A DNA stretch of 64,000 nt from Methanomassiliicoccaceae archaeon. GTDB taxonomy: Archaea; Thermoplasmatota; Thermoplasmata; Methanomassiliicoccales; Methanomassiliicoccaceae. The notes beneath the pieces were generated by a model. It saw only the letters and a list, made by a program, of their open reading frames with translations, did not search any database and was not told where the DNA came from. A program made the translations under genes and the position numbers. The stretch spans positions 224,001 through 288,000 of the forward strand of contig CAVSJV010000007.1 in the NCBI GenBank assembly GCA_963728405.1, in the 5' to 3' direction. Below are positions 1 through 45,617 of this stretch, one piece after another (position 1 is the first letter of the stretch; each line of letters begins with the position of its first letter).

Positions 1-399
1 GTCACGTTCCAGTCCTTCAACGCTTCCTTTACCTTCTCTAGGTCGGCACTGCGCCTTAGGGCGACCTCGGTACGCCGCCAATTGTCAGTGAACAGCCTCT
101 CCACTGGCATCTTGGTCTTCAGATGCTCGTAGGCCCTTTCCGGCAGCAAGCCCTCGCACAACTGGTATATCTTTTCCTGATAGGAGACCACCCCGCCATT
201 CTCGGCGATGATGGGGCCCTGCAGCCCGATATAGGTCGAAAGCCCATAGGCGACCGGTAGAAATGTTGCCGGAAGCGATGCTTACTGGTACCCCCCGTTC
301 CTGGACCCTCCGCAGGGCCTCGATGGCCGAAGTGAACATCACTTTGTTACGGTCGGTCAGCGTGCCGTCGACATCCACCACCACTGCCTTTATGCTCAA
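1..399 (-). CDS. HAD-superfamily phosphoglycolate phosphatase (TA0175/SPP-like); one frameshift near 262, runs off the window start
   Basis: The N-terminus has the VVVDVDGTLT HAD motif I and ASGN. After one extra base the frame continues LPVAYGLSTYIGLQGPIIAENGG, typical of this family. Confidence 0.85.
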
Positions 400-11151: not shown

Positions 11152-11832
11152 CTAGCGCCATTCCAATAGTGACGGTCCGCCTCCAGTGTGGACCTGTTTG
11201 ATCTCGAAGGGGATCCACTGCGACGAGGTGATGCAGCCCCGCATGTTGCGTATGCGCATGCGCCGGTTCAGCTCCTCATCGAACCGTAGCTCCAGCACAC
11301 CGTCGGCGATGGCCATCAAGTGATTCACGGTCCGTTCGTCATGCACGCCCTCGTGAACGGTGAAGAAGGCCGTCCCGAACTCGGTGCGTATGCGCGAGGA
11401 CGAGATCTGGAAGAACTTCAGCACAACGTTGGACTGATTATAGAGGAACAACGTTGAAAGGGAGTGGACCACGATCTTCACCGGCCGGGTGGTGCTGCTG
11501 GCCAGGGTGGAGATGTTGAACATGATGCCCTCCAGGTCGGAGACCTTCCTGATCTCGGTCCCCTGGCAGTTGGTGGAGTTATCGAACGAGCCCAGGAGCG
11601 AGGAATGGTAGTCGATGATGAACATGTTCCTGCCCAGCACCTCACGGTCCACGCCGAACGAGGTCATAATATCCAAGAGATCGGACGGCAGCAGGTCCAC
11701 GGTGACGAAGATGACCAGATTGTCCGACTCCATCCAGTCCTTGGCGATACTGACCGCGAACTCCAGCATACCGATGCCGGGGCTGCCGATCATCAGCATG
11801 GACGAATACTCGGGAAAGGTGGCCTTTATCAT
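11152..11832 (-). CDS. Single-domain KaiC/RAD55-family protein with a degenerate Walker A
   Basis: GSPGIGMLEF (Lys replaced by Met), VVHSLSTL, IADGVLEL...RRMRIRNMRG. Confidence 0.82.
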   Translation of the reverse strand: MIKATFPEYSSMLMIGSPGIGMLEFAVSIAKDWMESDNLVIFVTVDLLPSDLLDIMTSFGVDREVLGRNMFIIDYHSSLLGSFDNSTNCQGTEIRKVSDLEGIMFNISTLASSTTRPVKIVVHSLSTLFLYNQSNVVLKFFQISSSRIRTEFGTAFFTVHEGVHDERTVNHLMAIADGVLELRFDEELNRRMRIRNMRGCITSSQWIPFEIKQVHTGGGPSLLEWR

Positions 11833-11841
11833 ATGGGCACC

Positions 11842-13320
11842 TCAGAGTATTGGGGTGAGGGAGACATTGCTTCCTGCCTCCTTCTTCTCAAAATGAAGGG
11901 CATAGCACTCGGTGAACGGCTCCTCGCCGTACAGCAGAATGGTCCCTCCGATGCGGTCGATCCTCAGGCGGGTGGTGGCCAGATCGGCCAACCTGCTGGT
12001 GGATGAACTGGACGGCGGGGTCATGGCCACGAATATGCCGTTGTTCCTCCTCACCAGCGCGAGGAAGTCCATCAGTTGGTCGCAGATATCGCTGCCGTAC
12101 AGCGATTGCATGGTATCGAAACCCATCATCGACAGGATCGGCTTCTTGGACGAGTTGAGCGAGAACTCGATGTTCTGCCACTTGAAGTCGAAGAAGGCGT
12201 TCGCCCCTTCGATCGGCAGCACGAACGGATCGCCCACAGAGGTCATCTGGTCCGCTTTCTCCGGTATCCGGACCAGGCGGTCGAACTCCTGCTCCGGCAC
12301 GGCCTTGGTGATCCTGGACCGGGCACTGTCCGCCGACGCTTTCCTTAGCGGGACCCACAGTACTCCTCTTCCCAGGGCGATGAAGTTCGTGACCAGGGCC
12401 GATTCCAGGGCGGTGCTGACGGCGGTGGGGACGCCATGGCCCAGTTCGATGAGCGTGATGGAACCTCGCTCCAACCCTCCGTTGAGCGAAAGGTCCAGGT
12501 CCCGGATGCCGCAGGAGACCCGGTCGTTGATGTCATCGATGGGCTTCCACATGGTCTTCTGTATCTGGGATTCCAGCACCCGCTGATAGCCGAAGGTCTG
12601 GATCCTCCCTCCGTCCAGGGTAAATATGTATTTAGGCTGCTGGATCTCGCATCCTCTTAACTTTAGGATCTCAAGCTCGCGCAGCCGGCGGCGATTGTAC
12701 TCGGTGCAGGAGAAGTTGATGACCCCGTCCCCGAGGTAGTCGAGGTCCATGTTGCTGTTCTCAAGTACGAACAGCACGTTGGAGCCGTAGCCCTCCACGA
12801 TGTCGTACTGGATGGTGGATAGTAATCTTGAGCAGGTTAGATTGTACTTCTCGGCAAGGGCGTCGATGGAATCGATCACGACCAAGCTCTTGTCCGGGAG
12901 GTTCTTCTCGATGCCTCTGTAAAGGCCTTCCAGCTCTCCTAGGTCTTTCCCAATGGAGATGGCCAGCTCGCCCCCTTTGGCAAACTCCAGAGGGGCGTTC
13001 TTTATGCCCTTGAGATTGCTGAGTCCGATACGGCGGACGGCTGGACCCTTGTTCTGGTGAAGGTCGGAAAAACTGTCGGAACGTTCGATGCTGTCCATCT
13101 TATCCTTGAGCCAGTCGAACTGGGTCAGCAGGGACATGTCCGATACTCGGGTGGAATGATAGAAGCTCTTCTCGATCGCCGAGAGCTCCTCGATGGTCTG
13201 CAGGGCGAACGTGGTCTTGCCGGTACCGGCGTTCCCCCGCACGATCAGGGAATGCCCGCCCGGATTGGTGAAGAACTGGTAGACCTCGGTCGGTATCTTT
13301 ATCTTAGGTTCCTTCTCCAT
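11842..13320 (-). CDS. Double-domain KaiC/GvpD-like P-loop ATPase
   Basis: GNAGTGKT, VIDSIDAL, YLGDGVI, LEILKLRG; the second domain (SCGIRDLDLSLNGG) lacks a Walker A. Confidence 0.88.
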   Translation of the reverse strand: MEKEPKIKIPTEVYQFFTNPGGHSLIVRGNAGTGKTTFALQTIEELSAIEKSFYHSTRVSDMSLLTQFDWLKDKMDSIERSDSFSDLHQNKGPAVRRIGLSNLKGIKNAPLEFAKGGELAISIGKDLGELEGLYRGIEKNLPDKSLVVIDSIDALAEKYNLTCSRLLSTIQYDIVEGYGSNVLFVLENSNMDLDYLGDGVINFSCTEYNRRRLRELEILKLRGCEIQQPKYIFTLDGGRIQTFGYQRVLESQIQKTMWKPIDDINDRVSCGIRDLDLSLNGGLERGSITLIELGHGVPTAVSTALESALVTNFIALGRGVLWVPLRKASADSARSRITKAVPEQEFDRLVRIPEKADQMTSVGDPFVLPIEGANAFFDFKWQNIEFSLNSSKKPILSMMGFDTMQSLYGSDICDQLMDFLALVRRNNGIFVAMTPPSSSSTSRLADLATTRLRIDRIGGTILLYGEEPFTECYALHFEKKEAGSNVSLTPIL

Positions 13321-13500
13321 TAGATGGCCTCCCCGAATATCATCGAGACGATGGATAAAAATCCGATAGGGCTGGTTTATATCTTTGCCGCAGATTACGA
13401 TTAGTGATAACAGGAATGGGGCTGGCATAGAGATGTCTGGATGAAACCGGGACAAAAAGGTTATGAGGGACTAGTTAAATCGAGTATTGGAGGAAGCAGG

Positions 13501-14695: not shown

Positions 14696-16486
14696 ATGTG
14701 CGGGATCATAGGGTATGCGGGCCCCCGGAACGCGGAGGAAGTGCTCCTCGATGGACTAAAAAGGCTGGAGTACAGAGGCTATGACTCAGCGGGCATCGCC
14801 ATAGCGGGCAGCAAGCTGGAGATATTCAAGGACAAAGGCGAGATATCCAAGATGGCTGCCACTATGCCCAGCTTGCGAGGGCACCTCGGGGTCGGCCACA
14901 CCAGGTGGGCGACCTGCGGAAAACCTTCCAAGCTGAACGCCCATCCCTTCCTCGATTGCACCGGTAAGATGGCGGTGGTGCACAACGGCATCATAGAGAA
15001 TTACCTGGCCTTGAGGAAGAAGCTCAAGGACGAGGGCCACGTGTTCACCTCCGAGACGGACACCGAAGTGCTGGTCCACCTGCTCGAGAAGCATTACCGG
15101 GGCGATCTGCATGCCGCGCTGGTCGAGACGCTGAAGGAGATCAAGGGAACCTACGCGGTGGTGGCCATCCGGGCCGACCGCAATGAACTGGTCGCCGCGC
15201 GGAAAGAGAACCCCCTGGTGGTCGGACTGGGCGTCGGAGAGAATATCATCGCCTCCGATGTCACGGCCATGCTCAACTACACCAACAAGGCCGTCTACAT
15301 AATGGACGGCGAGACCGTGGTTCTCGGCTCCGGCAAGGTCTCCATATATGATCGGCAAGGCGCGGAGGTCCGCCGGGAGCCGTCTATGATCACATGGACG
15401 GTGGAGGACGCTCAGAAGGGCGGGTTCGAGCATTACATGCTCAAGGAGATATTCGAGCAGCCGACCGCTATCCATAACTCCCTCCTGGGTAGCCTGGATG
15501 AGCTGGAATCAGGTAACTTGATGATCGATCAGGACGTCTCATCGGTAAAGTTGGTAGCCTGCGGGACTTCCTATCATGCGTCGATGGTGGGCAAGTACAT
15601 CATCGAGCAACTGGCCAAGGTCCCCACCACCGTGGAGCTGGCATCAGAGTACCGCTATTCGCCAGGCACTGGAGAGAACCCCCTGACCGTCCTGCTGACT
15701 CAGTCTGGAGAGACGGCCGACACCCTGGCCGCGGCCAGAGAGGCCCGCCGCAGGGGCTGCCGCACCCTGGCCGTCACCAACGTGGTCGGAAGCACCATCG
15801 CCCGCGAGGTCGACAGCGTGTTCTACACCAAGGCAGGCCCTGAGATCGGGGTCGCGGCCACCAAGACCTATACGACCCAGCTGATCTCCATGTATCTCTT
15901 GGGTATTCGCCTGGGACAGCTGCGTCACAAGATGGCCCGCGATGAGGTCCGGGAGCTGGCCTCCGAGCTCAGAGGCATGCCCCGCTACATCCGGAAGGTG
16001 CTGGACCTTGCCCATGAGGTGGATGCGGCCGCCGACATGCTCGTCCCTGCCAGGGATGTGTTCTTCCTCGGTCGGAACATCAACTATCCCACCATGTTGG
16101 AGGGCGCCCTCAAGCTCAAGGAGATATCCTACATTCACGCCGAAGGCTATGCCGCCGGCGAGCTGAAGCACGGCCCCCTGGCGTTACTGGACGCGTCCAC
16201 CCCAGTGGTGGCGGCGTGCGTTCGGGACCACACCTACGAGAAGATGCTGGCCAACATATCAGAGGTCGCCGCCCGGGACAGCCCCATACTTGGCATCGGG
16301 ATCGAGGGCGACACCGAGCTGGCGGCGGTGGCCGATTCAACGGTCTTCATCCCCAAGGTCTTTCCCATCCTTTCCCCGGTACCTCTGACGGTCATGGTGC
16401 AGCTGATCGCCTACTACACGGCCAAGAAGAGAGGATGCCCCATCGACAAGCCCCGGAACCTGGCCAAGAGCGTCACCGTCGATTAA
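14696..16486 (+). CDS. glmS: Glutamine--fructose-6-phosphate transaminase (isomerizing)
   Basis: MCGIIG, LEYRGYDSAG, GHTRWAT, QSGETADT, ELKHGP, PRNLAKSVTV. Confidence 0.98.
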   Translation: MCGIIGYAGPRNAEEVLLDGLKRLEYRGYDSAGIAIAGSKLEIFKDKGEISKMAATMPSLRGHLGVGHTRWATCGKPSKLNAHPFLDCTGKMAVVHNGIIENYLALRKKLKDEGHVFTSETDTEVLVHLLEKHYRGDLHAALVETLKEIKGTYAVVAIRADRNELVAARKENPLVVGLGVGENIIASDVTAMLNYTNKAVYIMDGETVVLGSGKVSIYDRQGAEVRREPSMITWTVEDAQKGGFEHYMLKEIFEQPTAIHNSLLGSLDELESGNLMIDQDVSSVKLVACGTSYHASMVGKYIIEQLAKVPTTVELASEYRYSPGTGENPLTVLLTQSGETADTLAAAREARRRGCRTLAVTNVVGSTIAREVDSVFYTKAGPEIGVAATKTYTTQLISMYLLGIRLGQLRHKMARDEVRELASELRGMPRYIRKVLDLAHEVDAAADMLVPARDVFFLGRNINYPTMLEGALKLKEISYIHAEGYAAGELKHGPLALLDASTPVVAACVRDHTYEKMLANISEVAARDSPILGIGIEGDTELAAVADSTVFIPKVFPILSPVPLTVMVQLIAYYTAKKRGCPIDKPRNLAKSVTVD

Positions 16487-17457
16487 TCCAGCCTCTCGGG
16501 GCAAGCGTCCCTTCGTGAGCAGGAGCGGCATTTACCCGGCCGGTCGTGGTCGCGATGAGCCTCTCCGGATGATATCGCCATCCTCATCTCCGCCAGTTTC
16601 GTCAGCAGCAGGGACCGGAGGTTCTGGTCGAACTCGATGACGTGCTCGACCTCCCCGTACCTGAGGATGCCGTAGCTCACCCTGCCCTCCTGCTCCATGA
16701 GGAGGCAGTATGCAGCCAGCTGTATGATGTGCGAGAACAGCGGCCCGCGGGGGACCCGCCCGGTCTTCACCTCTACCGGGACAAGCTCGCCATCTATCTC
16801 CAAGATATAGTCCGGCCTGCCGGCCAGTTGGTGTTCCTCGGACCTAAGGGTCCGGGGCTCTCCGCCCTCCCCGATGTAGGCGATGCGTCCCTTGACATTG
16901 AAGGACTCCCTGATCTTCCTAGCTCCCTCCGCCTGCGCCTGGGACAGGTAAAGGGCCAGGGAGGCTGCCATCAGTAGCAGCAGAGCGACGGCCTCGGCTA
17001 GCAACCCCTGGTCCTGGCTGAACCCGAAGATAGGGACGGCGTTGAGGGCCAGGACCATCGCCAGGATCGCGAGGACACCGATCCACAGCTCGCTCTTCTC
17101 CCGGTCCCAGGGGGCCCTGGTCCGGGCCGAGTTGTAGAGAACGGTGATGGCCAGCAGGATCCATAGCAGAGCGAGAACGCTGAGGGCCCTGGCTCGAAGC
17201 AGAACATCGGTGGAAGCGAAGACGAAAAGCCCGATCAGGGCCAGGGCGGTGGCGACCACCGACGATGCGATGACCAGGCGCTCATACTGCGATGCCCGGC
17301 GCTCTTGGCGAACAATGCCCCGGAGCTCAGATGCCATCCGATCATGGCGTTGGCGGCCTTGGTCAAGGCCTTCCTCGCAGACCTCGTTGTCCCGAAGCTG
17401 CCAGCTCAGGGGACAGTAACAGAACTTTTCGAGGTCTCCCGCGGAGATTCCTGCCAT
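16483..17457 (-). CDS. Stand-alone Cas4/Dna2-like PD-(D/E)XK nuclease with about four inserted transmembrane helices
   Basis: FCYCP, GRQRH, a hydrophobic insert, GRPD, VEVKT, QLAAY, and CRSC-x5-C. No CRISPR array or other cas genes in the window. Confidence 0.85.
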   Translation of the reverse strand: MAGISAGDLEKFCYCPLSWQLRDNEVCEEGLDQGRQRHDRMASELRGIVRQERRASQYERLVIASSVVATALALIGLFVFASTDVLLRARALSVLALLWILLAITVLYNSARTRAPWDREKSELWIGVLAILAMVLALNAVPIFGFSQDQGLLAEAVALLLLMAASLALYLSQAQAEGARKIRESFNVKGRIAYIGEGGEPRTLRSEEHQLAGRPDYILEIDGELVPVEVKTGRVPRGPLFSHIIQLAAYCLLMEQEGRVSYGILRYGEVEHVIEFDQNLRSLLLTKLAEMRMAISSGEAHRDHDRPGKCRSCSRRDACPERLD

Positions 17458-17521: not shown

Positions 17522-18328
17522 TCAGACCTGATCATTGATGATCTCTTCGGGGCAGAAGTCCCCGCCACCGGACGCCCGCTCGCAATCCATGTTGCACAGA
17601 CAGGCGTCGATGATCTCGATGCCAGGCGGACAATCGACCTCTTCGACATGCCCGAACCAGTAGACCACTAGGCCATGACCGAACATCTCAACATATTGGC
17701 TGAGCTGTCCGCGGATGTTCTTGTTGAACTCGATGCGGTCGCCGAAGGAGGCCTTGGACTCGATCCAGTTGAGCGTCCACCCATTGACCTTCAATGGCTC
17801 ATCGAGCAGGCAGTCGGGGGTCTTGGTGAACTTGCCCCGGAGGTCCTTCTCGGTGCGGTAGGTGATGTTGTGGGCGTTGAGCCACTCCTGAAGTTTGGTC
17901 TCTCCCCAGGTTCCTCGTTTGTACTGGACATCGTTCCCCCAGGGTGAGTAGATGGTATCGGCCTCGGTGATCTCGATGATCTCCCGCTTGGTGCGGGGAT
18001 TGGCGATGCACTCCGGCTCGCGGACATATTTCCAGAACTCCTTCTTGGAGTACCCATCCTCCTGGAACAGCAACAGGCCAGTGAGGATGGGGGGAAAATT
18101 CCACTTGTCGGAGATCTCCAGGAGACTGATCCCGGACCTCCAATCCCTCAGCAAACGGGGGGCGTTCCTTTTGACCACATGATAGTGCTTGGTAGCTTCA
18201 CGTACCGTCCTTTGGGTGTAGATGACGTTGAGAAGCTCTTCATCAAGACCGGTCTGTTTTGACAGGGCTTTCACATCTCTATGTGTGTTTAGCCGATCAT
18301 AAAGGGTCTTGAACTCTTCAAATTTCAT
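17522..18328 (-). CDS. TPD-domain protein, homolog of eukaryotic C15orf41/CDIN1 (restriction-endonuclease-like)
   Basis: TEKDLR...KTPDCLL...NWIESKASFGD...QLSQY...FGHGLVVYWFG. Confidence 0.85.
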   Translation of the reverse strand: MKFEEFKTLYDRLNTHRDVKALSKQTGLDEELLNVIYTQRTVREATKHYHVVKRNAPRLLRDWRSGISLLEISDKWNFPPILTGLLLFQEDGYSKKEFWKYVREPECIANPRTKREIIEITEADTIYSPWGNDVQYKRGTWGETKLQEWLNAHNITYRTEKDLRGKFTKTPDCLLDEPLKVNGWTLNWIESKASFGDRIEFNKNIRGQLSQYVEMFGHGLVVYWFGHVEEVDCPPGIEIIDACLCNMDCERASGGGDFCPEEIINDQV

Positions 18329-18537
18329 ATGAACTTCGACCTATCGATTCGATTATGAGGTTCGTAAAACCTGCCATGTCTTAAATATATCGACAACAAC
18401 AACATGGACCACATGTTATCGGTATCTCCATAGATAATGTTTTTCTATAGGCATGACAGGTATGGATAGATTATATATCACGGAGGGGTATTTAGCGTCA
18501 TCCGAATTATTTATCCAGACTTGTGAAGAGGGATAGC

Positions 18538-19236
18538 ATGGCAGAATTACCATTCCTAGCAAACAGCAACGGGCCGGCCTGGCTACCGGGCGCGGCCAAG
18601 GAAGCCCGCCAGTTCGCCTACTGGGGGCAATTGATCCTGGTGGCGATGTTCATCCTCGCCATTGTGTTGGCCATATTGGCCTTCGCGGTCTCGTCCTGGG
18701 CCTCGGGCGTATATTTCGTCATCTCCGCTGTCGTGGACGTCATACTGCTGTACCTGATGAACAGTACGGTGTTCGAGCCCATGGATCAGGGCAAATTCCG
18801 CGAAGCGAGCGACCGTCTGTTGATCTGGGGCATACTGGGCCTTATCTTTTCCCTGGTGGTCCCGGGCATATTCCTGCTCCTGGCGTTCATTCGCCTGCAG
18901 GAGGTCTTCCAGCCTCAATATCAGCAGTACCCCACCCAGTACTACCAGGCGCCTCAGCAGTACCCGCCGCAGCAGGCCCCGCCGCCCGCTCAGCCTCAAT
19001 ATCAGCCGGCGCCGCCCCCTCAACAGTACCAGCAGCCTCCGAACCAGGCACCTCCGCCGCAGCAGGCCCCGCCGCCCCAGTACCAGCCGGCCCCTGCCCC
19101 CGCGCCAGTGCCTCCACCGGTCGCCCCTGCTGCCGAACCGCAGCAGCACAAGTCCGATATGACCAAGTGCAAGAGCTGCGGCGTGCAGTACCCCTCGTTC
19201 ATGAGGAACTGCCCCAACTGCGGCGCTCCGAGATGA
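18538..19236 (+). CDS. Membrane protein with a Pro/Gln-rich linker and C-terminal zinc ribbon
   Basis: Three to four hydrophobic segments, a QQYPPQQAPPP low-complexity tract, and CKSC...CPNCG. Confidence 0.8.
   Translation: MAELPFLANSNGPAWLPGAAKEARQFAYWGQLILVAMFILAIVLAILAFAVSSWASGVYFVISAVVDVILLYLMNSTVFEPMDQGKFREASDRLLIWGILGLIFSLVVPGIFLLLAFIRLQEVFQPQYQQYPTQYYQAPQQYPPQQAPPPAQPQYQPAPPPQQYQQPPNQAPPPQQAPPPQYQPAPAPAPVPPPVAPAAEPQQHKSDMTKCKSCGVQYPSFMRNCPNCGAPR
18909..19150 (+). repeat. Coding low-complexity repeat (Gln/Pro/Tyr)
   Basis: CAGCCTCAATATCAGC occurs twice and CCGCCGCAGCAGGCCCCGCCGCCC occurs twice. Confidence 0.7.
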
Positions 19237-24282: not shown

Positions 24283-24374
24283 GTAGCTCCCTAATCCAAC
24301 TTCTAGTTAATATATCATGAACGAAGCCTAAGCGTAGCCGGGTCCCTTTTCCCTTGGCCAGTGGAGGACGGGGG

Positions 24375-25958
24375 GTGGACCTTCCCTTGTTGCTGGCGGT
24401 GCTCTATTTCTCGTTCCTGGGAACCGGCCTGGGGTCTCTGACCGGCCTCACTCCCGGTGTCCACGTCAACACCCTGGCCCTGATCCTGGTGTCATCTTGC
24501 CCATTGCTCCTGCCCCTGCTGGAAGAGGCCGCTGCCGCCCTGGGGACGGTACGCGAAGCGGCTCCCCTGCTGATGGTCACCGTCATCGTCTCCGCGGCGG
24601 TGGCCCATTCCTTTCTCGACTTCCTTCCATCGATCTTCCTGGGCGCGCCGGAGGAGGGTACCGCCCTCAGCACCTTGCCCGGTCATCGGCTGCTACTGAG
24701 TGGTAAAGGGCTGGACGCGGTCCTCTGCTCCGCCTACGGCGGCCTGGTGGGCGCTACCGCCGCAGTGGTGCTGTGCCTGCCACTGTCCCTGGTTTTGGGC
24801 CCGCCCCTCGGCCTGTTCCCGCTGCTGGACCAGGCGACCCCGTTCCTGGTGGTGGCCGCCCTGATGGCCCTGGTGATCTCGGAGAAGGGAAAGAAGCTCC
24901 GGGTGGCGGTCCGGGTCCGCAAGGTCACACGCACTAGGGGGGCGGTAAGCCTGGTCCGTTCGGTCCCGGTGAACGGCCTGGAAGCGACCTTAGTAGGGAG
25001 AGTGGAGAGGGACCGGTATGGGAGAAAGTGGCTCCGGACCTCCCATGGCCGGTGGCGGCTGAAAGGGGCAAGCGTTCAGGGGGGTATGGTCAGGGTAGAA
25101 TGTGTCTGGCAGGTACGTCATTCCGCCATTCGTGAACGCTGCTATGCCGTTGCGCTCCTGCTCATCTCCGGCCTGCTAGGGCTCACCTGCATGGGATCCC
25201 GTCTACCGCTCACCGACATCTGGGAAGGCATGGACCAGAGCATACTCTTCCCGCTGCTCACCGGCCTGTTCGGCCTGCCGGGGATCATCAGCTCCCTCCG
25301 CTCCAGCACAATCCCCCCGCAGCTCGAGCCGTCCGCTTTCCAGGGTGAGCTGGGGCCCGGCCTGCGGGGAGCACTGTCCGGCGCGCTGGTCGGCTGGTTC
25401 CCCGGGATATCTTCTACCACGGGGGTAATCATTGCCTCTGCGTTCTCGCGCGACCGCGAGGATCAACTGGCCGGTTCGCGCCGCTATCTGGCCATGGTGT
25501 CGGCGGTGGGCACATCGTCCACCGTGCTCGGTCTCCTGGCCCTCTCCATCGCCTACAAGGGGCGCTCAGGGGCGATGCTGGCGGCCAAGGAGGTGCTGGG
25601 GCCGGAGGGGGTATCGCTGCTCTCCCTCCCCTCGCCGTGGTTCCCCCTTCTCCTCGCGGCGGCGCTCCTCTCCGCCGCGGTCAGCTACCTGCTCGCGCTC
25701 CGGTTGGGCCGGCGCCTGGCCCGCCTGGCGGCCGGGGCGGACCTCGGCCCCCTGAACAAGGTCATACTCATCCTTATCGTCCTTCTGGTCGCGGTGTTCT
25801 GCGGGCTGCCGGGGCTGCTGGTCCTTGTGGTGGCTACCTTCCTGGGCTTCCTGCCTCCGCGGCTTGGGGTAAGCCGCGTCCACCTGACCGGATGCCTCCT
25901 GCTCCCGACGGCACTGTACTTCCTCGGCCTAGAGGCAGGGCTCCTGTCGGTGCTTTGA
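24375..25958 (+). CDS. Tripartite tricarboxylate transporter TctA/DUF112 family permease with a soluble insertion
   Basis: GLTPGVHVN, FLDFLPSIFLGAP, LPGHRLL, PLLTGLFG, GWFPGIS, and many TM segments. The start is uncertain (24354 or 24375). Confidence 0.85.
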   Translation: MDLPLLLAVLYFSFLGTGLGSLTGLTPGVHVNTLALILVSSCPLLLPLLEEAAAALGTVREAAPLLMVTVIVSAAVAHSFLDFLPSIFLGAPEEGTALSTLPGHRLLLSGKGLDAVLCSAYGGLVGATAAVVLCLPLSLVLGPPLGLFPLLDQATPFLVVAALMALVISEKGKKLRVAVRVRKVTRTRGAVSLVRSVPVNGLEATLVGRVERDRYGRKWLRTSHGRWRLKGASVQGGMVRVECVWQVRHSAIRERCYAVALLLISGLLGLTCMGSRLPLTDIWEGMDQSILFPLLTGLFGLPGIISSLRSSTIPPQLEPSAFQGELGPGLRGALSGALVGWFPGISSTTGVIIASAFSRDREDQLAGSRRYLAMVSAVGTSSTVLGLLALSIAYKGRSGAMLAAKEVLGPEGVSLLSLPSPWFPLLLAAALLSAAVSYLLALRLGRRLARLAAGADLGPLNKVILILIVLLVAVFCGLPGLLVLVVATFLGFLPPRLGVSRVHLTGCLLLPTALYFLGLEAGLLSVL

Positions 25959-28121
25959 TCGGCCATTATCATCCCGCGCCCTCAACTCTTCAAAGCTCCA
26001 GCCGAACGGGGACAGCAGTTCGGACGCCCCCCGCAGCGCGAACTCCACGTACCGCTCCGCGTCATAGTGCTCGTCCCCGTCCAGGAAGGGCGCGGCCCTA
26101 ACCCGTTGCCAGGAGCTCTTGCTCTTGGAGTCGGTGATGAGGTACTCGACGGCCTGCCCGGGCTGCAGCTCGAACCCCTGGTCATGCAGCTGGCGGAGGG
26201 CGGCCACCGAATCGTTGAACTGCACGTACTCCTCCAGCCGCCGGGATATGCTCTTCCGCATGATCAGGCGGTCCCTGGACACCGTGCCGGAGCGCAGCTC
26301 CTCGGCGTAGCGGTCCAGGGCTCGGAGCGAGGAGGGCACCAGCTCCCGGAACTCGTCGGCGTCCTTGGCCCTAGAGAGGTGCTTGAGCATGTCCTGCTGC
26401 AGGTCCTCGATCAGGGTGGGGGTGTCCTTCCGGCGGACGGCAATGCCTCGTAACTTCAGCTCTCCGCTCTCGAACATGCCGTAGTATCTGTTGAGCGCCC
26501 CGATGCCAGTGGAAATGTTCGGAAGGAAGACGATCCAAGCGTATCTCCCTTCCAGGTTCAGAGGGATGCCCACCTCTCGGCTCATCTCCTCGCAGTACGA
26601 AGCGGCGTCCCCGTCCCCTTTCAACCACAACGAATCGACGATGCCGTGGAGGACCTCGAAGCCTCTTCTCTCCGCCAGGTCCGCGGAGCGAATGAGAATG
26701 TCCCTGCCGAAGGCGGTGATCGATTCATGGCATTCGATGCGCCCGAACCTAGCGTTGCGATAACCAGTGTAGCCAAAGCAGGTCACCAATACCCATTTGA
26801 GCGCCTTCGCTCGCTGATCATACATCTCCCCCTTCCGACCGCCCTGCTTCTTCAGCTGCTTGTACACCCGGCGGCGGTTGAGGAGGGGGACCAGCACCTT
26901 TGGTATGAGCCCCTGCCGCTTCTCACAGATGTGATATCCGAGTTCGGGAACGGTCCTGCCCGAGTGGGGACAGCATGAGCACAGCAGCGTCTCCGGGGAG
27001 ATGTTGTACTGGACCATGATGCTAGGGTAGAGGGAGAAGAAATCGACCTCCCAGACGTGGTCGTGGACGCCGACCTTGGGCTCGTAGATGAACCCCCCAC
27101 GGTCCGACACGATCAGCGCCCTGGCGGTCTTGAAGTCCTCGGGCAGGTTCTTCTTCCATAGGATGACATGGCCGGAGCGCACGGCCTCGTTCACTTGCAT
27201 GGCGCTGATGGCGCTGCCTGGCGACAGCCGGGAGAGGTCCTGCAGAGGGATCATCGACAGCCGGGATAGCTCGATGAGGCCGTGCAGCCCGCTCTCCATG
27301 AAGGTGAACGATGCCTCGCGGTCGATATGAACGCGCCCCCGTAGCTTATGGCCAGGCGGCTTGTACACGATGCGGCCGTAGGTGAAGAAGCTCTTGCCCT
27401 TAGAGGTAAGCTCGCCCTTCTCCCGGCCGAGCTCGAGCTGGAGCCCGTTGGCTTCCGCGCGCTTGTGCAGGTACGGCAGGTAGAACGAATCGCCCTTGCT
27501 GGTGTAGATGATGTCCGGGTCCCTTTCCGCGATGAGGGCCTGCAGCTCTTTGAGCACCTCATCCTCGGGACCATCCAGCACGACGTCGTCCGCGGTGATC
27601 GAGACGATGGTGTCCTCGAAGGTCGGTATCCCCACCCCGGCAGTCCTGATCTTGAGGTCCAGGGAGCTCAGGTCGGGGATAGGATAATCGATGCGCAGGT
27701 TGGAGTCCAGGGAGCGCAGGGACGGCGCCTCCACCAGCCCCATGGAGAAGATGCCCTTCTCCAGGAAGTAGCGCTGGTCCATGCGCAGGTCGACGTTATA
27801 GAGCAGGTGATGGTGGTAGTCGCCCCACGAGTCGATGGTGACCGCCAACGGCTGGATGGCGGCGTAATCGCGGACCGCGATCGAGAGCACGTCCCTCTCC
27901 CGCTCCCCCAGTCCGGTCCGCCGGCGCACTATCGCCGTGTCCCTGACCCCCAAGAGCGTGAGGTCCCTGACCAGCTTCTCCAGCCGCTCGCGGGAAGCGC
28001 GCACGTAGATGTGCGGCACGAAGCCCTCGATCACTCGCTCCACGCCCTGGTTGGTCTTGATCCAGGTGACCATGCGGTTCTCGGCCATGTCGGCGTAGCA
28101 GTCCAGCACCCAGCCCTTCAT
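25929..28121 (-). CDS. polB2: Family B DNA polymerase, PolB2 type
   Basis: Motif A DFFSLYPSI, motif B KWVLVTCFGY, altered motif C HGIVDS (canonical YGDTDS), NRYYG, and degenerate exonuclease motifs. Confidence 0.9.
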   Translation of the reverse strand: MKGWVLDCYADMAENRMVTWIKTNQGVERVIEGFVPHIYVRASRERLEKLVRDLTLLGVRDTAIVRRRTGLGERERDVLSIAVRDYAAIQPLAVTIDSWGDYHHHLLYNVDLRMDQRYFLEKGIFSMGLVEAPSLRSLDSNLRIDYPIPDLSSLDLKIRTAGVGIPTFEDTIVSITADDVVLDGPEDEVLKELQALIAERDPDIIYTSKGDSFYLPYLHKRAEANGLQLELGREKGELTSKGKSFFTYGRIVYKPPGHKLRGRVHIDREASFTFMESGLHGLIELSRLSMIPLQDLSRLSPGSAISAMQVNEAVRSGHVILWKKNLPEDFKTARALIVSDRGGFIYEPKVGVHDHVWEVDFFSLYPSIMVQYNISPETLLCSCCPHSGRTVPELGYHICEKRQGLIPKVLVPLLNRRRVYKQLKKQGGRKGEMYDQRAKALKWVLVTCFGYTGYRNARFGRIECHESITAFGRDILIRSADLAERRGFEVLHGIVDSLWLKGDGDAASYCEEMSREVGIPLNLEGRYAWIVFLPNISTGIGALNRYYGMFESGELKLRGIAVRRKDTPTLIEDLQQDMLKHLSRAKDADEFRELVPSSLRALDRYAEELRSGTVSRDRLIMRKSISRRLEEYVQFNDSVAALRQLHDQGFELQPGQAVEYLITDSKSKSSWQRVRAAPFLDGDEHYDAERYVEFALRGASELLSPFGWSFEELRARDDNGRSKHRQEPCL

Positions 28122-37781: not shown

Positions 37782-38477
37782 TCACGCTTCCTTAAGCGCC
37801 GCGGCATCGCCCTCGATGGGCGCGCCGGCGACGTGGACCCTGGTGGGCCCGCTGATGATCTTGAGGCGCTTCTCCTGCTCGTCGGTGACCCTCATTTCGG
37901 AGGTCCGCTTCAGAGCGTCGAAGGTGGCCAACGCGTAGTTCACCGTGGTCTTGGTGTGTCCGCGGGCAAAGCCCCAAGAGTCCTTTACCCCGGCCAGGCC
38001 GAGGATGCTCTTGGCGACGTCGCCAACGGCGAGCCCGATACCACGGGGCGCCGGCTTGAGGGTGACCTCCACCGAACTGGACTTACCAGTGACGGCCAGA
38101 GGCAGGGAGTGAGCTGTTCCGCAACCACATTCCCAGGACCCGCAGCCCCTCTTGATCTCGATCATGTTGAGCTTGGCGTTATCGATCGCCTTCCGGATGG
38201 TCGGGCCGACCTCCTTACCCTTGGCGCGGCCTAGGCCGACATATCCGTCGCCGTTGCCGACGCAGCTGGTGACCGCGAACCTGACCCTGCGGCCGGAGTC
38301 TGTCATCCTTTGGACCATGTTAAGGTCGATGACCTCGTCCTTCATCTCCGGCAGGAGGATATCTACGATCTCCGGCTCCCTCAGAGGGAGCTTGGTGGCA
38401 AGGGCCTGGCTCATGGTGGTTATCTCACCGCTCAGGACCATCTTGCCCAATCTTGTCTTAGGATTCCATTCTGCCAT
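37782..38477 (-). CDS. rps5: 30S ribosomal protein uS5
   Basis: [35 protein letters not shown]. Confidence 0.97.
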
Positions 38478-38478
38478 C

Positions 38479-38979
38479 TTATTCCGCCTCCATCCGGCTC
38501 TTGACCTCTTCGACCATCTTACCCAGCTTCTCATCGATGTGGGCACCGTTGAGCCTTTCCTTTGCCGGAATGACCTCCTCGCCGTGGGGGATATTGATGC
38601 CTGCATCGAGCATGCCCTTCAGGGCAGCGAAGACAGCTGAGCCTTTCGCCGGCCCCCTGAGGCCGATGTCCAATACTGCGTCCTCGATACCGTTCTTGGC
38701 CGCCCTCTTACCAGCTAAGTAGCCGGTGAGGTAGGTCGCGGGCAGGTTTCCGGTCGCTGCGGTCCACCCGAGCTTTGTGAGCTCCTTGGAGGTGGCCGAG
38801 GCCAGGACCTTGTCCCCAGTGGCATCGTAGGATATGAACTGGACGTTGGCGTTCCTAAGGGAGAGGCGAACTACCGCCCTCGGGATCCTTGCCCTGAGCA
38901 GCCTCTGCCTCTGCCTGTAATCTGTCCTTCCCTCCCTGCGCCTGCGGAAGGGCACCCTATACCTTGGTCCATTTGCCAT
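38479..38979 (-). CDS. rpl18: 50S ribosomal protein uL18
   Basis: [24 protein letters not shown]. Confidence 0.97.
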
Positions 38980-39440
38980 TACTGTCCCTCCTTCAGGTGA
39001 CCTTCCATCTTTAGGTGCGAAAGCACATGGGTCCGGCTCTTGAACATGCCGCCCTTGGCCTTCATGTAGAACTCGCGGTAGACGTGCTTGTCGATCTGCC
39101 CGCTTTCCCTCAGCCCACGAAGCTCGGCACGAATGGGTCTGATGGTCTGGATCCAGTCTCTCTTGGTGGGAGTCCTGGCCCCGGCCTTTCCCTTCCTGCT
39201 GCCCGGACCGCGCTGGCGGCCTTTCTTGCGCTGGGCGCGGTTGTACTTGGTCCGGCCCTTGGAGATGCCGGCCTTGGGCATTGCCTTGATCGTTCCGGAC
39301 CCGATCGCTGTGCGGATATCCGCTCGAGTAATGGCGTCGGCGAGGTCCTCAGTACGGTTAGGGTCGATCCAAACGCGGTTCTCCCCGCAGTCCAGTATCT
39401 CGGCCGCCATACGCCTTTGGTTCTTAAGGTCCATTTTCAT
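38979..39440 (-). CDS. rpl19e: 50S ribosomal protein eL19
   Basis: QRRMAAEILDCGENRVWIDP, GPGSRKG, AKGGMF. Confidence 0.97.
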   Translation of the reverse strand: MKMDLKNQRRMAAEILDCGENRVWIDPNRTEDLADAITRADIRTAIGSGTIKAMPKAGISKGRTKYNRAQRKKGRQRGPGSRKGKAGARTPTKRDWIQTIRPIRAELRGLRESGQIDKHVYREFYMKAKGGMFKSRTHVLSHLKMEGHLKEGQ

Positions 39441-40219
39441 CCCGTCCTGTTCAAGACACGAATGCCCAGTTCATCGGCCTTTTGCTCGATGGCCTGCCTT
39501 TTCTTGAATCCGACGCTGCTGCCTACTCTTGCTGCCTGTACCTTGGGGTCCATCTTCTGCAGCTGGTCTGGGTTGAACACCATTACCTCTTCGAATCCAG
39601 AGGGGTGCAGGCCGCGTACCTTGGCCGGTCCGCGGTACCCGATGCTGACGACATTGGGACGGTACTGGATGTGGCGGCGCATCTTGGAGTGCATACCGCG
39701 TGGTCTTCTCCACTTCTCGCCCAGACGGGGGAAGCGGAACCACTCTTGCCTCAGGAAGGCGATGCGGTCGTGGCTCATTTCATAGCGCAGGGCCAGGAGC
39801 TTCTTGGTCTCGGCGTCGAGGATCGGCTTCTGCTTAGGCGTATAGCCGCCTTTCTCGACGACCTCGGCTTCTGGCTTCTCAACGATCTCGACCCCTTCCT
39901 TCTTGGCCTTGGCCAGCTTCTTCTCAGAAGCCGAGGGGACGATGGCCCTCTCTTCCTTCTTGGCCTTGGGCTCTACGGCCTTCTCTTTCCGGGCGGGCTT
40001 GGTCTCGGTCTCCAGGAGCCCCTTCCAGGTCTCCAGGGTCTTTGGCCCGACCCCGTTCAGCTCGGCCATGATCTCTTCGGCCTTCTCGTCGTCATAGATG
40101 GCCTTCTTCAGGTCAGGAAGGGACTTGATGCCCATGTCCGTGAGCTGAGCGGTGAACTCTTCCTTGTAGTGGGGGAGGTCCGTCAGCTCCTTGATCTCTA
40201 TCTTCTTCTCCTTGCTCAT
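39437..40219 (-). CDS. rpl32e: 50S ribosomal protein eL32 with a long N-terminal extension
   Basis: WRRPRGMHSKMR, GYRGPAKVRGLHPSG, RVLN. Confidence 0.95.
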   Translation of the reverse strand: MSKEKKIEIKELTDLPHYKEEFTAQLTDMGIKSLPDLKKAIYDDEKAEEIMAELNGVGPKTLETWKGLLETETKPARKEKAVEPKAKKEERAIVPSASEKKLAKAKKEGVEIVEKPEAEVVEKGGYTPKQKPILDAETKKLLALRYEMSHDRIAFLRQEWFRFPRLGEKWRRPRGMHSKMRRHIQYRPNVVSIGYRGPAKVRGLHPSGFEEVMVFNPDQLQKMDPKVQAARVGSSVGFKKRQAIEQKADELGIRVLNRTG

Positions 40220-40770
40220 GAGCTCACCTTCTTGACCGCCTTCTCAGTGATGTAGATGCCATCCTGGAACACCCGGGGGTCGAAGCCCCAGATCTTGGTG
40301 GCGTACTCAATGTTGGCCGCCGTCTGACCGACCGCCTCGACATCGATGCCAGTTAGCACGACATCGTTACCCTTGACCACGATCTTGGTTTCCCTGACGA
40401 TCTTGGCCTGGCGGGCAGCGCGCTCACCGAGGAAGTTCTCGATGATGAACTTCTCGCCCTTCACCGAGGTCTTCATCGGGAAGTGAGAGTAGACGATCTT
40501 CATGTGGTATTCGAAGCCCTCGGTCACGCCCTCGATCATGTTGGTGAGGTGCGACGCAAAGGTGCCGATCATGGCTTTATCCTTCACGCGGGGGAGTTCG
40601 CAGCTGACCACGATGTGGTCGCCGTCCACTCTGACCTTGGTCTTTGGGTTGGTGAAGTCCCTGGACAGTTTGCCCTTGGGGCCTTTGACATCGACAATGG
40701 ATCCCTGTACGGTGACGGTGACTCCCTGGGGGATGTCCACCATCTCCTCGATTAATCCGCTTAGTGTCAT
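40216..40770 (-). CDS. rpl6: 50S ribosomal protein uL6
   Basis: VKGPKG, YSHFP, NFLGE, FDPRVFQDGIY. Confidence 0.97.
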   Translation of the reverse strand: MTLSGLIEEMVDIPQGVTVTVQGSIVDVKGPKGKLSRDFTNPKTKVRVDGDHIVVSCELPRVKDKAMIGTFASHLTNMIEGVTEGFEYHMKIVYSHFPMKTSVKGEKFIIENFLGERAARQAKIVRETKIVVKGNDVVLTGIDVEAVGQTAANIEYATKIWGFDPRVFQDGIYITEKAVKKVSS

Positions 40771-40779
40771 TGCAGTCCC

Positions 40780-41169
40780 TCAGTACACATAGGCCAGAAG
40801 CTTGCCGCCTACCCCTAGCTCCTTGGCTCTGGTGTGGCTCACGACGCCCGATGTGGTCGTCATAATGAGCACTCCGAAGTCCTGCGCGGGTAGGTATCTG
40901 GATTCGAACTTTTCCAGATCGTTCTTCTGTACCGAATATCTCGGCTTTATCACGCCGCAATCATTGATCTTGCCGTGCATTCTAACCTTGAACACGCCGG
41001 CCTTGCCGTCCTCAATGAACTCGAACTGGTTGATGTAACCATATTCCTGCATGACCTTCAGCACCCTCCCGATCAATTTCGAGGACGGGCGGATCATGCA
41101 TTCGCTCTTGCCTACTGAGGCTGCGTTCTTGATGGTCGACATAGCGTCGTTAAGTGGGTCGCTCTGCAT
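40780..41169 (-). CDS. rps8: 30S ribosomal protein uS8
   Basis: [31 protein letters not shown]. Confidence 0.97.
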
Positions 41170-41178
41170 GTCATCACC

Positions 41179-41325
41179 TCAGCTATACTTCTTGAACCCT
41201 ATTTGCGGGGCAATCTCGCGGAAGCACTGCCGACAGACGTGCATACCGTAGCGGCGCACGATGCCTCGCTTCCTTCCACAGCGCAGGCACCCTTTCTTTC
41301 TTCCAAACTCCTTCTTAGTCTTCAC
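41179..41325 (-). CDS. rps14: 30S ribosomal protein uS14 (not in the ORF track)
   Basis: GTG start; [47 protein letters not shown]. Confidence 0.95.
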
Positions 41326-41834
41326 TCGACCACCTCGACTTTGTACTGCTCCCTCATGAAGCCGATGGCCTCATCACGGGTCATGCGGTGCTTCCTGGGG
41401 ATCTTGCAGGTCATGATGCGCCTCTTGGCCACCCTGTACCCGGGCCTCTTTAAGACCACGTTGATATCCATGCCGAATATGCCGATCTCGGGGTCATACT
41501 TCATGCCCTCGAAGTCAGTGTAGTCGGAGATTCCGAAGGACATGTTGCCCTCCTTATCGAAGGAATAGATGGCAATCCTGTGCTCTCGGATGATCAGTGC
41601 CCTCTTGAGGAAGTCCTGAGCCTTCTCGCCCCTCATGGTGACCTTGCACCCGATGGGCATGCCGGTCCTGACGCCCAGGTCACGGTTAGTGACCTTGGCG
41701 ATGGTGATCACAGGCTTCTGCTTGGTGACCATGTTGAGGACTTTCTGGGCCTTGTTCAGGCGTTCGCCGGCCTCGCCAACGCCGATGTTGACGACGACCT
41801 TCTCGATCTTCGGCTGCCTCATGACGTCGCTCAT
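41322..41834 (-). CDS. rpl5: 50S ribosomal protein uL5
   Basis: [32 protein letters not shown]. Confidence 0.97.
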
Positions 41835-42541
41835 ATCGCGGCCTCCTCGGGCAACTCTATCTCGGGCACCTTAGCGCCGATGATGAACACGTTGCTCTTC
41901 ACGGTGGAGGTGCCATCCTTGAACTTTACGAGGTTGTCGGATGCGAGCCTAGTGATCAGGTACTCTTCTACGACCGCAGTCTCACCGACGTGGGACCCGG
42001 ATGTGATAAGGGCAACGCTGCCCTTGTCTAGGCTGTAGTGGTCCAGGACCTTCTGGCTTGGGATCTCGAGCTTGAGAACGTCGCCGGTCTTGTATTCATC
42101 CTTCTCCATCAGGAGGTTCCTGCCGTCGTGAAGGTTGAGCTGGGTCTTTCCGCCGGGTACGGTGGTCTTGTTCTCGATGCGGCAGAGCTTCCACGAGGCC
42201 TTGGTCTCGGGGACCTCGACCAGCTGGAGCTTGCCTCTCCTGTCCAGGACCATCCTATAGTAGGTCTTGATCTTGGGCATGGAGACGACATCCATGAGGC
42301 CGATGCCCTGCTTCAGGCTGGTGGCGACCTTGCCGTCCACCAGCACGCTCTTATCGTGTAGGACCGACCGGACCTCGCTGGCGGTGTTGCACACATGCAG
42401 CAGGTCACGAAGGACCACGTTCACCGGGATGCTCTCCTCTAGGGCGTGAGCGCCGGGGGAAGGCTTGGTGATCCAAGCGTTGGTCTTCCTCTTTACCGGC
42501 CAGCTGCGGGGCGCGGTCAATCTCTTCATTTCATTGCTCAT
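41831..42541 (-). CDS. rps4e: 30S ribosomal protein eS4
   Basis: KRLTAPRSW, PSPGAH, QLNLHDGRN, GSHVG. Confidence 0.97.
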   Translation of the reverse strand: MSNEMKRLTAPRSWPVKRKTNAWITKPSPGAHALEESIPVNVVLRDLLHVCNTASEVRSVLHDKSVLVDGKVATSLKQGIGLMDVVSMPKIKTYYRMVLDRRGKLQLVEVPETKASWKLCRIENKTTVPGGKTQLNLHDGRNLLMEKDEYKTGDVLKLEIPSQKVLDHYSLDKGSVALITSGSHVGETAVVEEYLITRLASDNLVKFKDGTSTVKSNVFIIGAKVPEIELPEEAAI

Positions 42542-42915
42542 TGTGAAACCTCCTTAGCCCTGGCGAGCCTTTCCTTCCGCTTGGGGTCGGAGAGGTCAAG
42601 CTTGGTGATCATGACCTTGGACGCATGCACAGACCTTGCGGTCTGAGTGCCGTCGGCCTTAGCGACGGTTACTCCTTCGACCGTCACCCTGCCCGTCTTG
42701 GTGATCACTGCGGCGACCTTGCCCTCTACGCCGAGGATGGCCTCGTCGCCACGCATAACCTTCACGGTGTCTCCCTTGATGACCTGGAGCGAGTGTATCT
42801 TGTACTCCTTCTGGAGATCTTCGCTCAGGTGGGAAGAGATGTTCTTCCTCCGGATGTGGATGGGAGCGTTAAAGAAGGCCTTCCGTTGCTTTCTCGCTTT
42901 CGTGCTCTTTACCAT
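42538..42915 (-). CDS. rpl24: 50S ribosomal protein uL24
   Basis: RKQRK...NAPIH, KGDTVKVMRG, HASKVMITKL. Confidence 0.96.
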   Translation of the reverse strand: MVKSTKARKQRKAFFNAPIHIRRKNISSHLSEDLQKEYKIHSLQVIKGDTVKVMRGDEAILGVEGKVAAVITKTGRVTVEGVTVAKADGTQTARSVHASKVMITKLDLSDPKRKERLARAKEVSQ

Positions 42916-42925
42916 TTTCTCACCT

Positions 42926-43324
42926 TCAGATGATCGTAGAGGCGGTCGCCGCAATACGGGGCCACCTCTCCGCCGCTTCCCTCGCCACGGGTCCCTTGAT
43001 GTCCGTTCCCTTGGTCTCGCCCTCTTCGGTGGTGATGACCGCGGCATTGTCCGCAAAGGAGATCATTACTCCATCAGCCCGGCGGAATGGCCGGCGCTGG
43101 CGGACGACGATGGCGTAGACTACTTGTCTCCGCATCTCCGGGGTGCCCTTCTTTACGGACGCGATCACTATGTCGCCCACTCCGGCCTTAGGGGTCCTAC
43201 GGGCTGTTCCGTGGTATCCCGGGACGGTGAGGATAGCGATCGTCTTGGCGCCCGTGTTGTCGATGACATTCAATACTGTTCCGTTCTGGACACCGCGTGT
43301 CTGTGTGCCGGCAACTCCTTTCAT
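42926..43324 (-). CDS. rpl14: 50S ribosomal protein uL14
   Basis: DNTGAK, SVKKG, FADNAAVI, KGPVAREAAERW. Confidence 0.97.
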   Translation of the reverse strand: MKGVAGTQTRGVQNGTVLNVIDNTGAKTIAILTVPGYHGTARRTPKAGVGDIVIASVKKGTPEMRRQVVYAIVVRQRRPFRRADGVMISFADNAAVITTEEGETKGTDIKGPVAREAAERWPRIAATASTII

Positions 43325-43329
43325 CACGT

Positions 43330-43659: not shown

Positions 43660-43664
43660 TGGGA

Positions 43665-45608: not shown

Positions 45609-45617
45609 GTTTCCACC

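Follow-up and report, generated by a model that had tools for sequence, protein, structure and literature searches.

The window analysed here is a 64,000-nucleotide stretch of DNA from a Methanomassiliicoccaceae archaeon (phylum Thermoplasmatota; contig CAVSJV010000007.1, positions 224,001 to 288,000). At 16483..17457 it carries a gene for a Cas4-like nuclease in which membrane hairpins are inserted between the two parts of the nuclease fold. This membrane-embedded Cas4 with inserted hairpins is a real and conserved feature, and we regard it as highly likely that the product is an integral-membrane enzyme of the Cas4/RecB-like PD-(D/E)XK family. The gene, singled out in a preliminary description of the sequence as a solo Cas4-like gene, is composed as follows (TM, transmembrane helix; HMM, hidden Markov model; ORF, open reading frame):

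16483..17457, minus strand: whole nuclease gene, 324 codons plus stop, ATG start (ORF; Pfam and NCBIfam Cas4 matches)
17284..17457, minus strand: N-terminal Cas4 module (N-module), residues 1-58 (ISAGDLEKFCYC15PLSW and the G34-x3-H38 helix)
17107..17307, minus strand: hairpin unit 1, residues 51-117, TM1 ~61-81 and TM2 ~91-111 (hydropathy, model helices, hairpin HMM envelope 51-117 with E 1.6e-20)
16912..17115, minus strand: hairpin unit 2, residues 115-182, TM3 ~124-144 and TM4 ~153-173 (duplicate of unit 1)
16486..16899, minus strand: catalytic PD-(D/E)XK core, residues 187-324 (Pfam, NCBIfam and PADLOC Cas4 matches, PDB sequence matches, invariant residues)

A Cas4 domain with an inserted membrane block

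The single minus-strand ORF of 324 residues carries all Cas4 hallmarks, as first claimed, and these were invariant (28/28) in an alignment of 28 homologs that are 43-77% identical to the window protein. The N-terminal motif KFCYCPLSW, with Cys13 and Cys15, is followed downstream by G34-RQR-H38. The core contains GRPD216Y, E229-V-K231, Q246-LAA-Y250, HRxH301-304, and C310-x2-C313-x5-C319. The preliminary description had placed an N-terminal cysteine and G-x3-H before the hydrophobic block and the PD, ExK, QxxxY, and three-cysteine motifs after it, and that order is what the sequence reads, with Cys15 and not Cys13 as the conserved residue. Residues C15, G34, H38, D216, E229, K231, Q246, Y250, C310, C313, and C319 are identical in all aligned homologs, as are Y14, P16, L17, and W19 alongside C15, G34, and H38 within the N-module. 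Cys13 varies across the same alignment, and Cys15 is therefore the probable cluster cysteine. The RecB-type catalytic residues D216, E229, and K231 line up with the GRAD...EIK motifs of SSO0001, and Q246 and Y250 make up the QxxxY motif of the Cas4 family. The cysteines follow the family pattern (one N-terminal, then C-x2-C-x5-C) and are putative ligands of an iron-sulfur (Fe-S) cluster; judged by these motifs, the window protein most likely carries a [4Fe-4S] cluster. A fifth cysteine, Cys251 (codon 16705-16707, minus strand), lies in QLAAYC and is nearly invariant in the archaeal proteins and in the single-helix bacterial proteins described below. SSO0001 has no cysteine at this position, and Cys251 could be a spare or alternative cluster ligand.

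Family models match the core of the protein. Pfam PDDEXK_1 (E 3.7e-14) and Cas_Cas4 (E 1.3e-8) are both confined to residues ~180-320, and NCBIfam TIGR00372 cas4 (72.4 bits, cut-off 65) and PF01930 (35.6, cut-off 22.7) cover residues ~203-320 only; residues 1-180 had no significant match to a Pfam or NCBIfam model. Among PDB sequences the core matched 4ic1 (SSO0001, E 5.4e-7) and 8d3l (E 2.9e-6), and the N-module aligned weakly with the N-terminus (residues 12-51) of the type I-C Cas4 8d3l. A word-indexed search returned 365 homologs at E<=1e-3. The 120 matches listed are 191-357 residues long, mostly with 99-100% query coverage, and the named ones among them are Cas4 of Methanomassiliicoccus, Methanomassiliicoccales, or Thermoplasmata. 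The homolog from the named species M. luminyensis is 61% identical to the window protein. An exhaustive profile search of 1.84 billion representatives gave 2438 proteins at E<=1e-3, including 199 at E<=1e-30, and the closest clusters in the ESM Atlas were Thermoplasmatota proteins labelled 'Cas4 family'.

An insert of ~113 hydrophobic residues (~61-173), which corresponds to four predicted TM helices, interrupts the fold after the Cys/His helix and before the catalytic core. This assignment is based on hydropathy, on the long helices of the predicted model, and on the conservation of the hydrophobic block. Hydrophobic stretches lie at ~59-89, 84-112, 120-148, and 150-175 with Kyte-Doolittle 19-mer means of 1.6-2.5, and the hydrophobic character of the block is kept across the 28 homologs. 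All three kinds of evidence agree with the original placement of the TM block inside the nuclease fold. Matches of the block to DUF7546, S_4TM, DUF6442, EPS sugar transferases, and SecE had E values of 3e-4 to 0.075, far under the cut-off, and were treated as compositional.

Sub-alignments of residues 50-116 and 115-182 matched each other in hhalign (probability 98.5%, E 2.7e-15, 61 columns), and the four helices are therefore a tandem duplicate of a two-helix hairpin; a single-sequence alignment of hairpin 1 with hairpin 2 gave z 2.6. The hairpin HMM was run on the 170 of 280 collected proteins that have both the N-terminal motif and the Cys triad, and the number of units varied:

0 units (divergent inserts): 16 proteins, 261-471 residues
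1 unit: 13 proteins, 268-499 residues
2 units: 133 proteins, 322-550 residues
3 units: 1 protein, 541 residues
4 units: 7 proteins, 516-596 residues

AlphaFold2, supplied with the 28-homolog alignment, gave a model with a predicted local distance difference test score (pLDDT) of 82.7 and a predicted template modelling score of 0.70. The model has helices at residues 28-81, 85-112, 116-140, and 148-186 followed by the beta core; the helix bearing His38 continues into TM1, and TM4 continues into the core. Cas4 chains were the top Foldseek matches (best 8d3q_J, E 2.2e-6), and superposition of the model with VIA-align gave the following:

Model 1..324 and the Cas4 part of 7mi5_A (8..211): Z 18.8, 176 residues aligned, 3.2 Å
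Model 1..324 and 8d3l_I: Z 16.4, 174 residues aligned, 3.2 Å
Model 1..324 and 4ic1_D: Z 12.7, 162 residues aligned, 3.4 Å

Because an alignment of ~176 residues needs both the N-module and the core, the N- and C-terminal halves close into one Cas4 domain in the model, and together they form a complete, if predicted, Cas4 fold. The AlphaFold check proposed at the outset thus returned four long helices with both halves superposing as a single domain. The nuclease domains of AddB, AdnA, Dna2, EXO5, and MGME1 were structural relatives with Z 9-14 in the same program.

The flanks and loops of the insert differ in charge. Across the 28 sequences, the two flanks (N and C) and the TM2-TM3 loop together have Lys or Arg at 276/1005 residues, compared with 38/472 for the TM1-TM2 and TM3-TM4 loops. 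Under the positive-inside rule, segments rich in Lys and Arg face the cytoplasm, which is also where Fe-S clusters are inserted, and this bias indicates that the nuclease faces the cytoplasm. The proposal that an even number of TM helices keeps both halves on the same side of the membrane agrees with the charge bias, with the joint superposition on Cas4, and with the existence of relatives that have one, two, or four units or are split within a hairpin.

Phylum-wide inheritance and two-gene forms

The family was surveyed in 401 sampled Thermoplasmatota genomes, whose families and genera are labelled here with f- and g-numbers (g2 is the sister genus of the window's own). The full-length profile matched 284/401 genomes and a profile of the N-module plus first helix matched 268/401, which included 164/262 high-quality genomes and 116/161 genera. 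About 21 of the N-module matches were weaker than 1e-10 and may be ordinary Cas4 N-termini; the single f6 match and all 10 f8 matches belong to this group. The insert-bearing nuclease is thus a phylum-wide family, and the HMM survey that the preliminary description had called for found that homologs do not lack the insert.

We also identified split, two-gene membrane Cas4 forms, a new finding of this analysis. The profile search had also returned many proteins of ~172-182 residues with one N-terminal hydrophobic helix and the core, without the N-module. A scan of species genomes seeded with seven of these single-helix proteins confirmed 594 of 600 pattern matches, and 80 loci were kept, 78 labelled Chloroflexota (Anaerolineae, Caldilineaceae, Thermoflexales, Herpetosiphon, and others) and two labelled only 'bacterium'. 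Upstream of the Chloroflexota core genes a small ORF recurs on the same strand, with the motif IRASE.G.Y.[FY]C.RAWW...G...H..HG followed by one C-terminal hydrophobic helix; by its sequence, it is the Cas4 N-module with a tail anchor. An N-module profile (A4) built from Thermoplasmatota only matched this ORF in 55/80 loci (E 7e-10 to 2e-4), always on the same strand as the core gene, and the Cys motif and a TM-like segment were present in 55/55. Bacterial and archaeal N-module profiles matched each other in hhalign (probability 97.4%, E 1e-11, 77 columns). Five of the 25 loci without an adjacent N-module had <700 bases upstream. All five Caldilineaceae genomes among those 25 had exactly one N-module copy elsewhere (bacterial profile, E 2e-22 to 4.5e-21), in a frame of 87 residues in four of them.

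Division of the protein also occurs within Thermoplasmatota. Family f22 encodes the N part and the core part in two adjacent frames (3/3 genomes), for example at L149 (1474-1746 and 1773-2273); the ORF pairs have 90 and 166 residues in one f22 genome and 95 and 176 residues in another. In family f36 both parts share one frame (2/2 genomes). The retention of both halves as separate and even unlinked genes argues for their reassembly, for pairing of the hairpin helices within the membrane, and for a dispensable outer loop.

The Chloroflexota genes (loci L052-L131) occur in a same-strand cluster of a Translin-like gene, the N-module tail-anchor gene, sometimes a HEAT/PDS5-like gene (~210 residues), the anchor-plus-core gene, NAD kinase, a B-box Zn protein, and RecN; L069 (2964-3602, 3639-3896, 4001-4495) is an example.

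Inheritance of the nuclease is vertical, with a protein tree that follows taxonomy. This tree, a quick search on 145 core columns, contained 39 archaeal and 12 single-helix rows and left out the duplicate loci of six genomes and four rows that failed the motif or length filter. Rows clustered by taxonomic family, completely for f1, f7, and f29 and for 5/6 rows of f3. The 10 f43 rows and the single f11 row formed one starred clade (99), the 11 rows of the window's order formed one clade with support 93, and archaeal and single-helix rows parted at support 91, unstarred. A pattern scan of 2.9 million viral contigs gave 27 pattern matches, of which one, partial and 37 residues long, was confirmed.

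Genomic setting and candidate roles

The window contains no tandem repeats and no CRISPR array. When its 67 ORFs were compared with PADLOC, Cas models were matched by the nuclease gene alone and the neighbours gave no defence-system match. In the genome (93.75% complete) we found no Cas1 match and only one PF01930 match, the window gene itself. The lack of CRISPR or cas context noted originally for the window therefore holds. Databases label the protein 'CRISPR-associated protein Cas4', and its TIGR00372 score is above cut-off, which would fit an adaptation Cas4 working in trans with a distant cas operon; for this genome that reading is contradicted by the lack of a Cas1 match and of an array or other cas genes in the window, the phylum-wide inheritance of the family is independent of CRISPR, and we consider such a role extremely improbable.

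Our favoured explanation starts from the architecture. Two tandem two-helix hairpins of ~65 residues separate the N-terminal Cys/His helix from the catalytic beta-core. Because each would enter and leave the membrane on the same side, the nuclease halves would meet again in the cytoplasm and rejoin as a complete Cas4 domain. Since the helix with His38 leads directly into TM1, and TM4 directly out into the core, a rigid stalk of two helices would hold this domain at the membrane's inner face. There it would act as an active, metal-dependent, CRISPR-independent DNA exo- or endonuclease on DNA at or crossing the membrane. We propose, tentatively and as a possibility somewhat short of even, that it processes or destroys linear DNA on entry into the cell, like a RecBCD-type gatekeeper, and anchoring would also keep a dangerous nuclease off the chromosome. 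Identity and role taken together, as a joint compromise, we judge the whole explanation moderately probable.

In the window, the nuclease gene converges on glmS with a 4-nucleotide overlap and lies 64 nucleotides downstream of a gene for a TPD/CDIN1-like protein; a possible AATAGATA box ends 26 nucleotides before the nuclease ATG, within that gap. The two neighbouring genes whose partnership was considered are:

17522-18328, minus strand: TPD/CDIN1 (C15orf41)-like PD-(D/E)XK protein (PF14811, E 9.3e-45)
24354-25958, plus strand: TctA-family membrane protein (E 8.2e-43), 7 kb from the nuclease gene

The order GlmS >< nuclease < TPD is kept in 11/11 other genomes of the window's order and in 0/18 loci outside it, and TPD is present in 226/401 Thermoplasmatota genomes. 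Occurrence by family or genus was as follows:

f2: TPD 48/48, nuclease N-module 2/48, TctA 48/48
f11: TPD 0/14, nuclease N-module 14/14, TctA 11/14
f22: TPD 0/53, nuclease N-module 50/53, TctA 45/53
f29: TPD 9/10, nuclease N-module 10/10, TctA 1/10
g2: TPD 4/4, nuclease N-module 0/4
f16: TPD 0/9, nuclease N-module 9/9
f7: TPD 0/4, nuclease N-module 4/4

The limitation of adjacency to the window's order and the uncoupled phyletic patterns ruled out TPD as an obligate partner. Divergent from the TPD gene, at 18523-19236 on the plus strand, is a gene for a 237-residue membrane protein with a long Pro/Gln-rich tract and a C-terminal zinc ribbon, the position of which is kept in 10/11 other genomes of the order.

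Other neighbours at 4-30 kb include RNase HII, oxidoreductases, KaiC-like ATPases, a GlmU-like gene, GlmS, adenine deaminase, phosphoribosyltransferases, an ABC transporter, TctA, PolB, and a Rad51-family protein. Among these, two adjacent KaiC/GvpD-like ATPase genes (11152-13455, minus strand) encode 226 and 537 residues, the larger with matches to the GvpD P-loop and basic region. The family-B DNA polymerase ORF (25929-28121, minus strand, 730 residues) matches a PADLOC homing-endonuclease model in three stretches (E 3.1e-34) and may carry an intein or a homing-endonuclease remnant. Farther along, a ~12-kb part of the window (38000-50000) shows a strongly negative AT skew (-0.16 to -0.26), and the ORFs called there lie mostly on the minus strand.

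Nineteen loci taken from other Thermoplasmatota genomes, most of them in different families, had varied housekeeping genes as neighbours, with ribosomal L15e in three loci and S2 in two. Two of these contexts would fit a cytoplasmic nuclease of DNA uptake or extracellular-DNA salvage that degrades or processes imported DNA. At L034 (4415-8384; G131, f7) the membrane Cas4 gene heads a same-strand run with a metallo-beta-lactamase, a DUF3198 protein, and a secreted-type protein with LTD and PLD domains. At L035 (5214-11225; G090, f43) a T2SSE-type ATPase gene is followed by those for an uncharacterised 664-residue protein, the membrane Cas4, and an A24 prepilin peptidase; a HerA-like gene lies next to them. 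The available part of a preprint (bioRxiv 10.1101/2022.08.17.504363) describes the archaeal DNA import machinery as unknown and reports that a TctA-like protein is needed for natural transformation in M. maripaludis, and in several groups TctA and the nuclease are either both present or both absent. Each suggestive context, however, was found in one of the 19 sampled families only, TctA is uncoupled from the nuclease elsewhere, and nothing comparable adjoins the window gene (PLD genes are present elsewhere in the window genome, none of them near it). We therefore rate an uptake or salvage function as unlikely.

The same housekeeping surroundings, together with vertical and near-core inheritance, would suit a repair or recombination nuclease acting on the cell's own chromosome, for example in end resection or in clearing DNA at the division site, and anchored at membrane-attached chromosomal sites. 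Such a role also draws on the structural relatives AddB/AdnA, Dna2, EXO5, and MGME1, which are repair or replication nucleases, and on the Chloroflexota split genes, which cluster with Translin-like genes (6/6 tested members match PF01997, all under cut-off), NAD kinase (at +1 in 25/61 loci), and RecN-like SMC_N genes (at +3 in 19/61). That synteny, confined to a single phylum, may reflect inherited gene order; the 19 Thermoplasmatota contexts showed no linked repair gene, and whole lineages lack the nuclease gene. A general resection enzyme would, moreover, be hampered by rigid anchoring in the membrane. We regard a housekeeping repair role as possible, if rather doubtful.

A dedicated antiviral or anti-plasmid effector triggered at the membrane, working by abortive infection or entry exclusion, would agree with the ties of the Cas4 family to defence, with the PADLOC Cas4 matches, and with a weak PADLOC DruK match of the nuclease gene; the S_4TM match (E 0.032) is likewise weak and not significant. 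Typical defence genes are patchy in distribution, whereas this gene is single-copy, follows taxonomy, and has housekeeping neighbours and no defence island. A RecBCD-like core gatekeeper is already covered by our favoured explanation, and a dedicated effector seems distinctly improbable.

Several results weigh against our favoured explanation, the processing of incoming DNA by a membrane-anchored Cas4. The tail with the Cys triad was modelled with low confidence (pLDDT 48-59), and the variable number of hairpins is accounted for by none of the proposed roles. The sampled loci showed no consistently linked transporter, pilus, or other entry machinery, and TctA was not cleanly coupled to the nuclease as a partner, with clearly uncoupled patterns in f2 and f29. 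The N-module was not found by profile search in 46/48 f2 genomes or in 4/4 g2 genomes, and the gene is therefore dispensable. A search of sequencing runs for the stretch found two peat DNA runs with small shares and no RNA run. Finally, the Translin-like, NAD kinase, and RecN neighbours of the split genes point towards repair over entry.

A Cas4 built into the membrane is kept in 116/161 sampled genera, and a two-gene version occurs in one Thermoplasmatota family and in Chloroflexota. A membrane Cas4 present in most of a phylum, with a recurring two-gene form, suggests a widespread, CRISPR-independent job at the membrane, the site of DNA entry, exit, or tethering. To our knowledge, RecBCD and AddAB are absent from Archaea and no archaeal DNA importer has been defined, and the membrane Cas4 is therefore a concrete candidate for either gap. 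On a more speculative view, which we hold to be somewhat unlikely, the hairpin-linked or two-piece transmembrane Cas4 would be the cytoplasmic nuclease module of an undescribed machinery, common to Archaea and Chloroflexota, for surveying or processing DNA at the membrane. The Fe-S cluster of the split forms would bridge two separately anchored chains, with one cysteine from the tail-anchored N-module and three from the core, and the loading or redox state of the cluster would then govern how the active enzyme assembles. The natural split lends itself readily to testing how fold and cluster assemble across a membrane hairpin, and the 61%-identical M. luminyensis homolog makes experiments feasible.

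Comparison with known Cas4 proteins and related nucleases

The preliminary description knew of no characterised example of this architecture, and our literature search likewise found no description of a membrane-embedded or split Cas4. The window protein shares its fold with CRISPR-associated Cas4, including the type I-C proteins (8D3L/8D3Q; Z 16.4 for 8D3L), the Cas4-Cas1 fusion (7MI4/7MI5; Z 18.8 for 7MI5), SSO0001 (4IC1; Z 12.7), and Pcal_0546 (4R5Q; Z 10.7), and it has in common with them the D, ExK, and QxxxY motifs, the 1+3 cysteines, and the N-terminal His helix. Its sequence likeness to solved Cas4 proteins reaches E 5e-7 to 8e-3 only. Unlike them, it carries four TM helices inserted after the His helix and before the core, with no Cas1 in its genome and neither Cas2, another Cas hit, nor a CRISPR array in the window. 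Compared with CRISPR Cas4, the window's clade is marked by PRGPLFSH, AAYC251, and HRxHxRPGKC, motifs located before the Cys triad.

By motifs, models, and fold the window protein is of the Solo-Cas4 kind (PMC5704561; PMC12501428), with which it shares a Cas4-family gene outside cas loci; it lacks the features of CRISPR association and of a soluble, contiguous domain. In the part of PMC12501428 available to us, M. mazei Solo-Cas4 is reported to bind a [4Fe-4S] cluster and to cut linear and supercoiled DNA with Mn or Mg, and overexpression of this soluble protein lowered growth of M. mazei. The described Solo-Cas4s are soluble (the M. mazei complex is given there as ~318 kDa), whereas the window protein has a membrane insert. 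The main text of Hudaiberdiev et al. 2017 (PMC5704561) never uses the word 'transmembrane' (0 occurrences), although its supplements may list such proteins. According to the accessible part of PMC13621843, its subject is a different, soluble Cas4-like lineage. AddB, AdnA, Dna2, EXO5, and MGME1 have the PD-(D/E)XK core in common with the window protein but are domains of soluble helicase-nuclease machines or mitochondrial enzymes, none of them known to be membrane-embedded.

The nearest sequence relatives are the split membrane Cas4 forms of Chloroflexota and f22, which match with E 1e-33 to 1e-40 over the core alone and the core halves of which are annotated in databases as 'Cas4' or 'Dna2/Cas4 domain-containing protein'. 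They share with the window protein the N-module, AAYC, RNH...C-x2-C-x5-C, and membrane anchoring. In the split forms a single hairpin is cut in its outer loop, giving a tail-anchored N-module of ~85-95 residues and an N-anchored core of ~166-180 residues, whereas the window protein is one chain with two hairpins.

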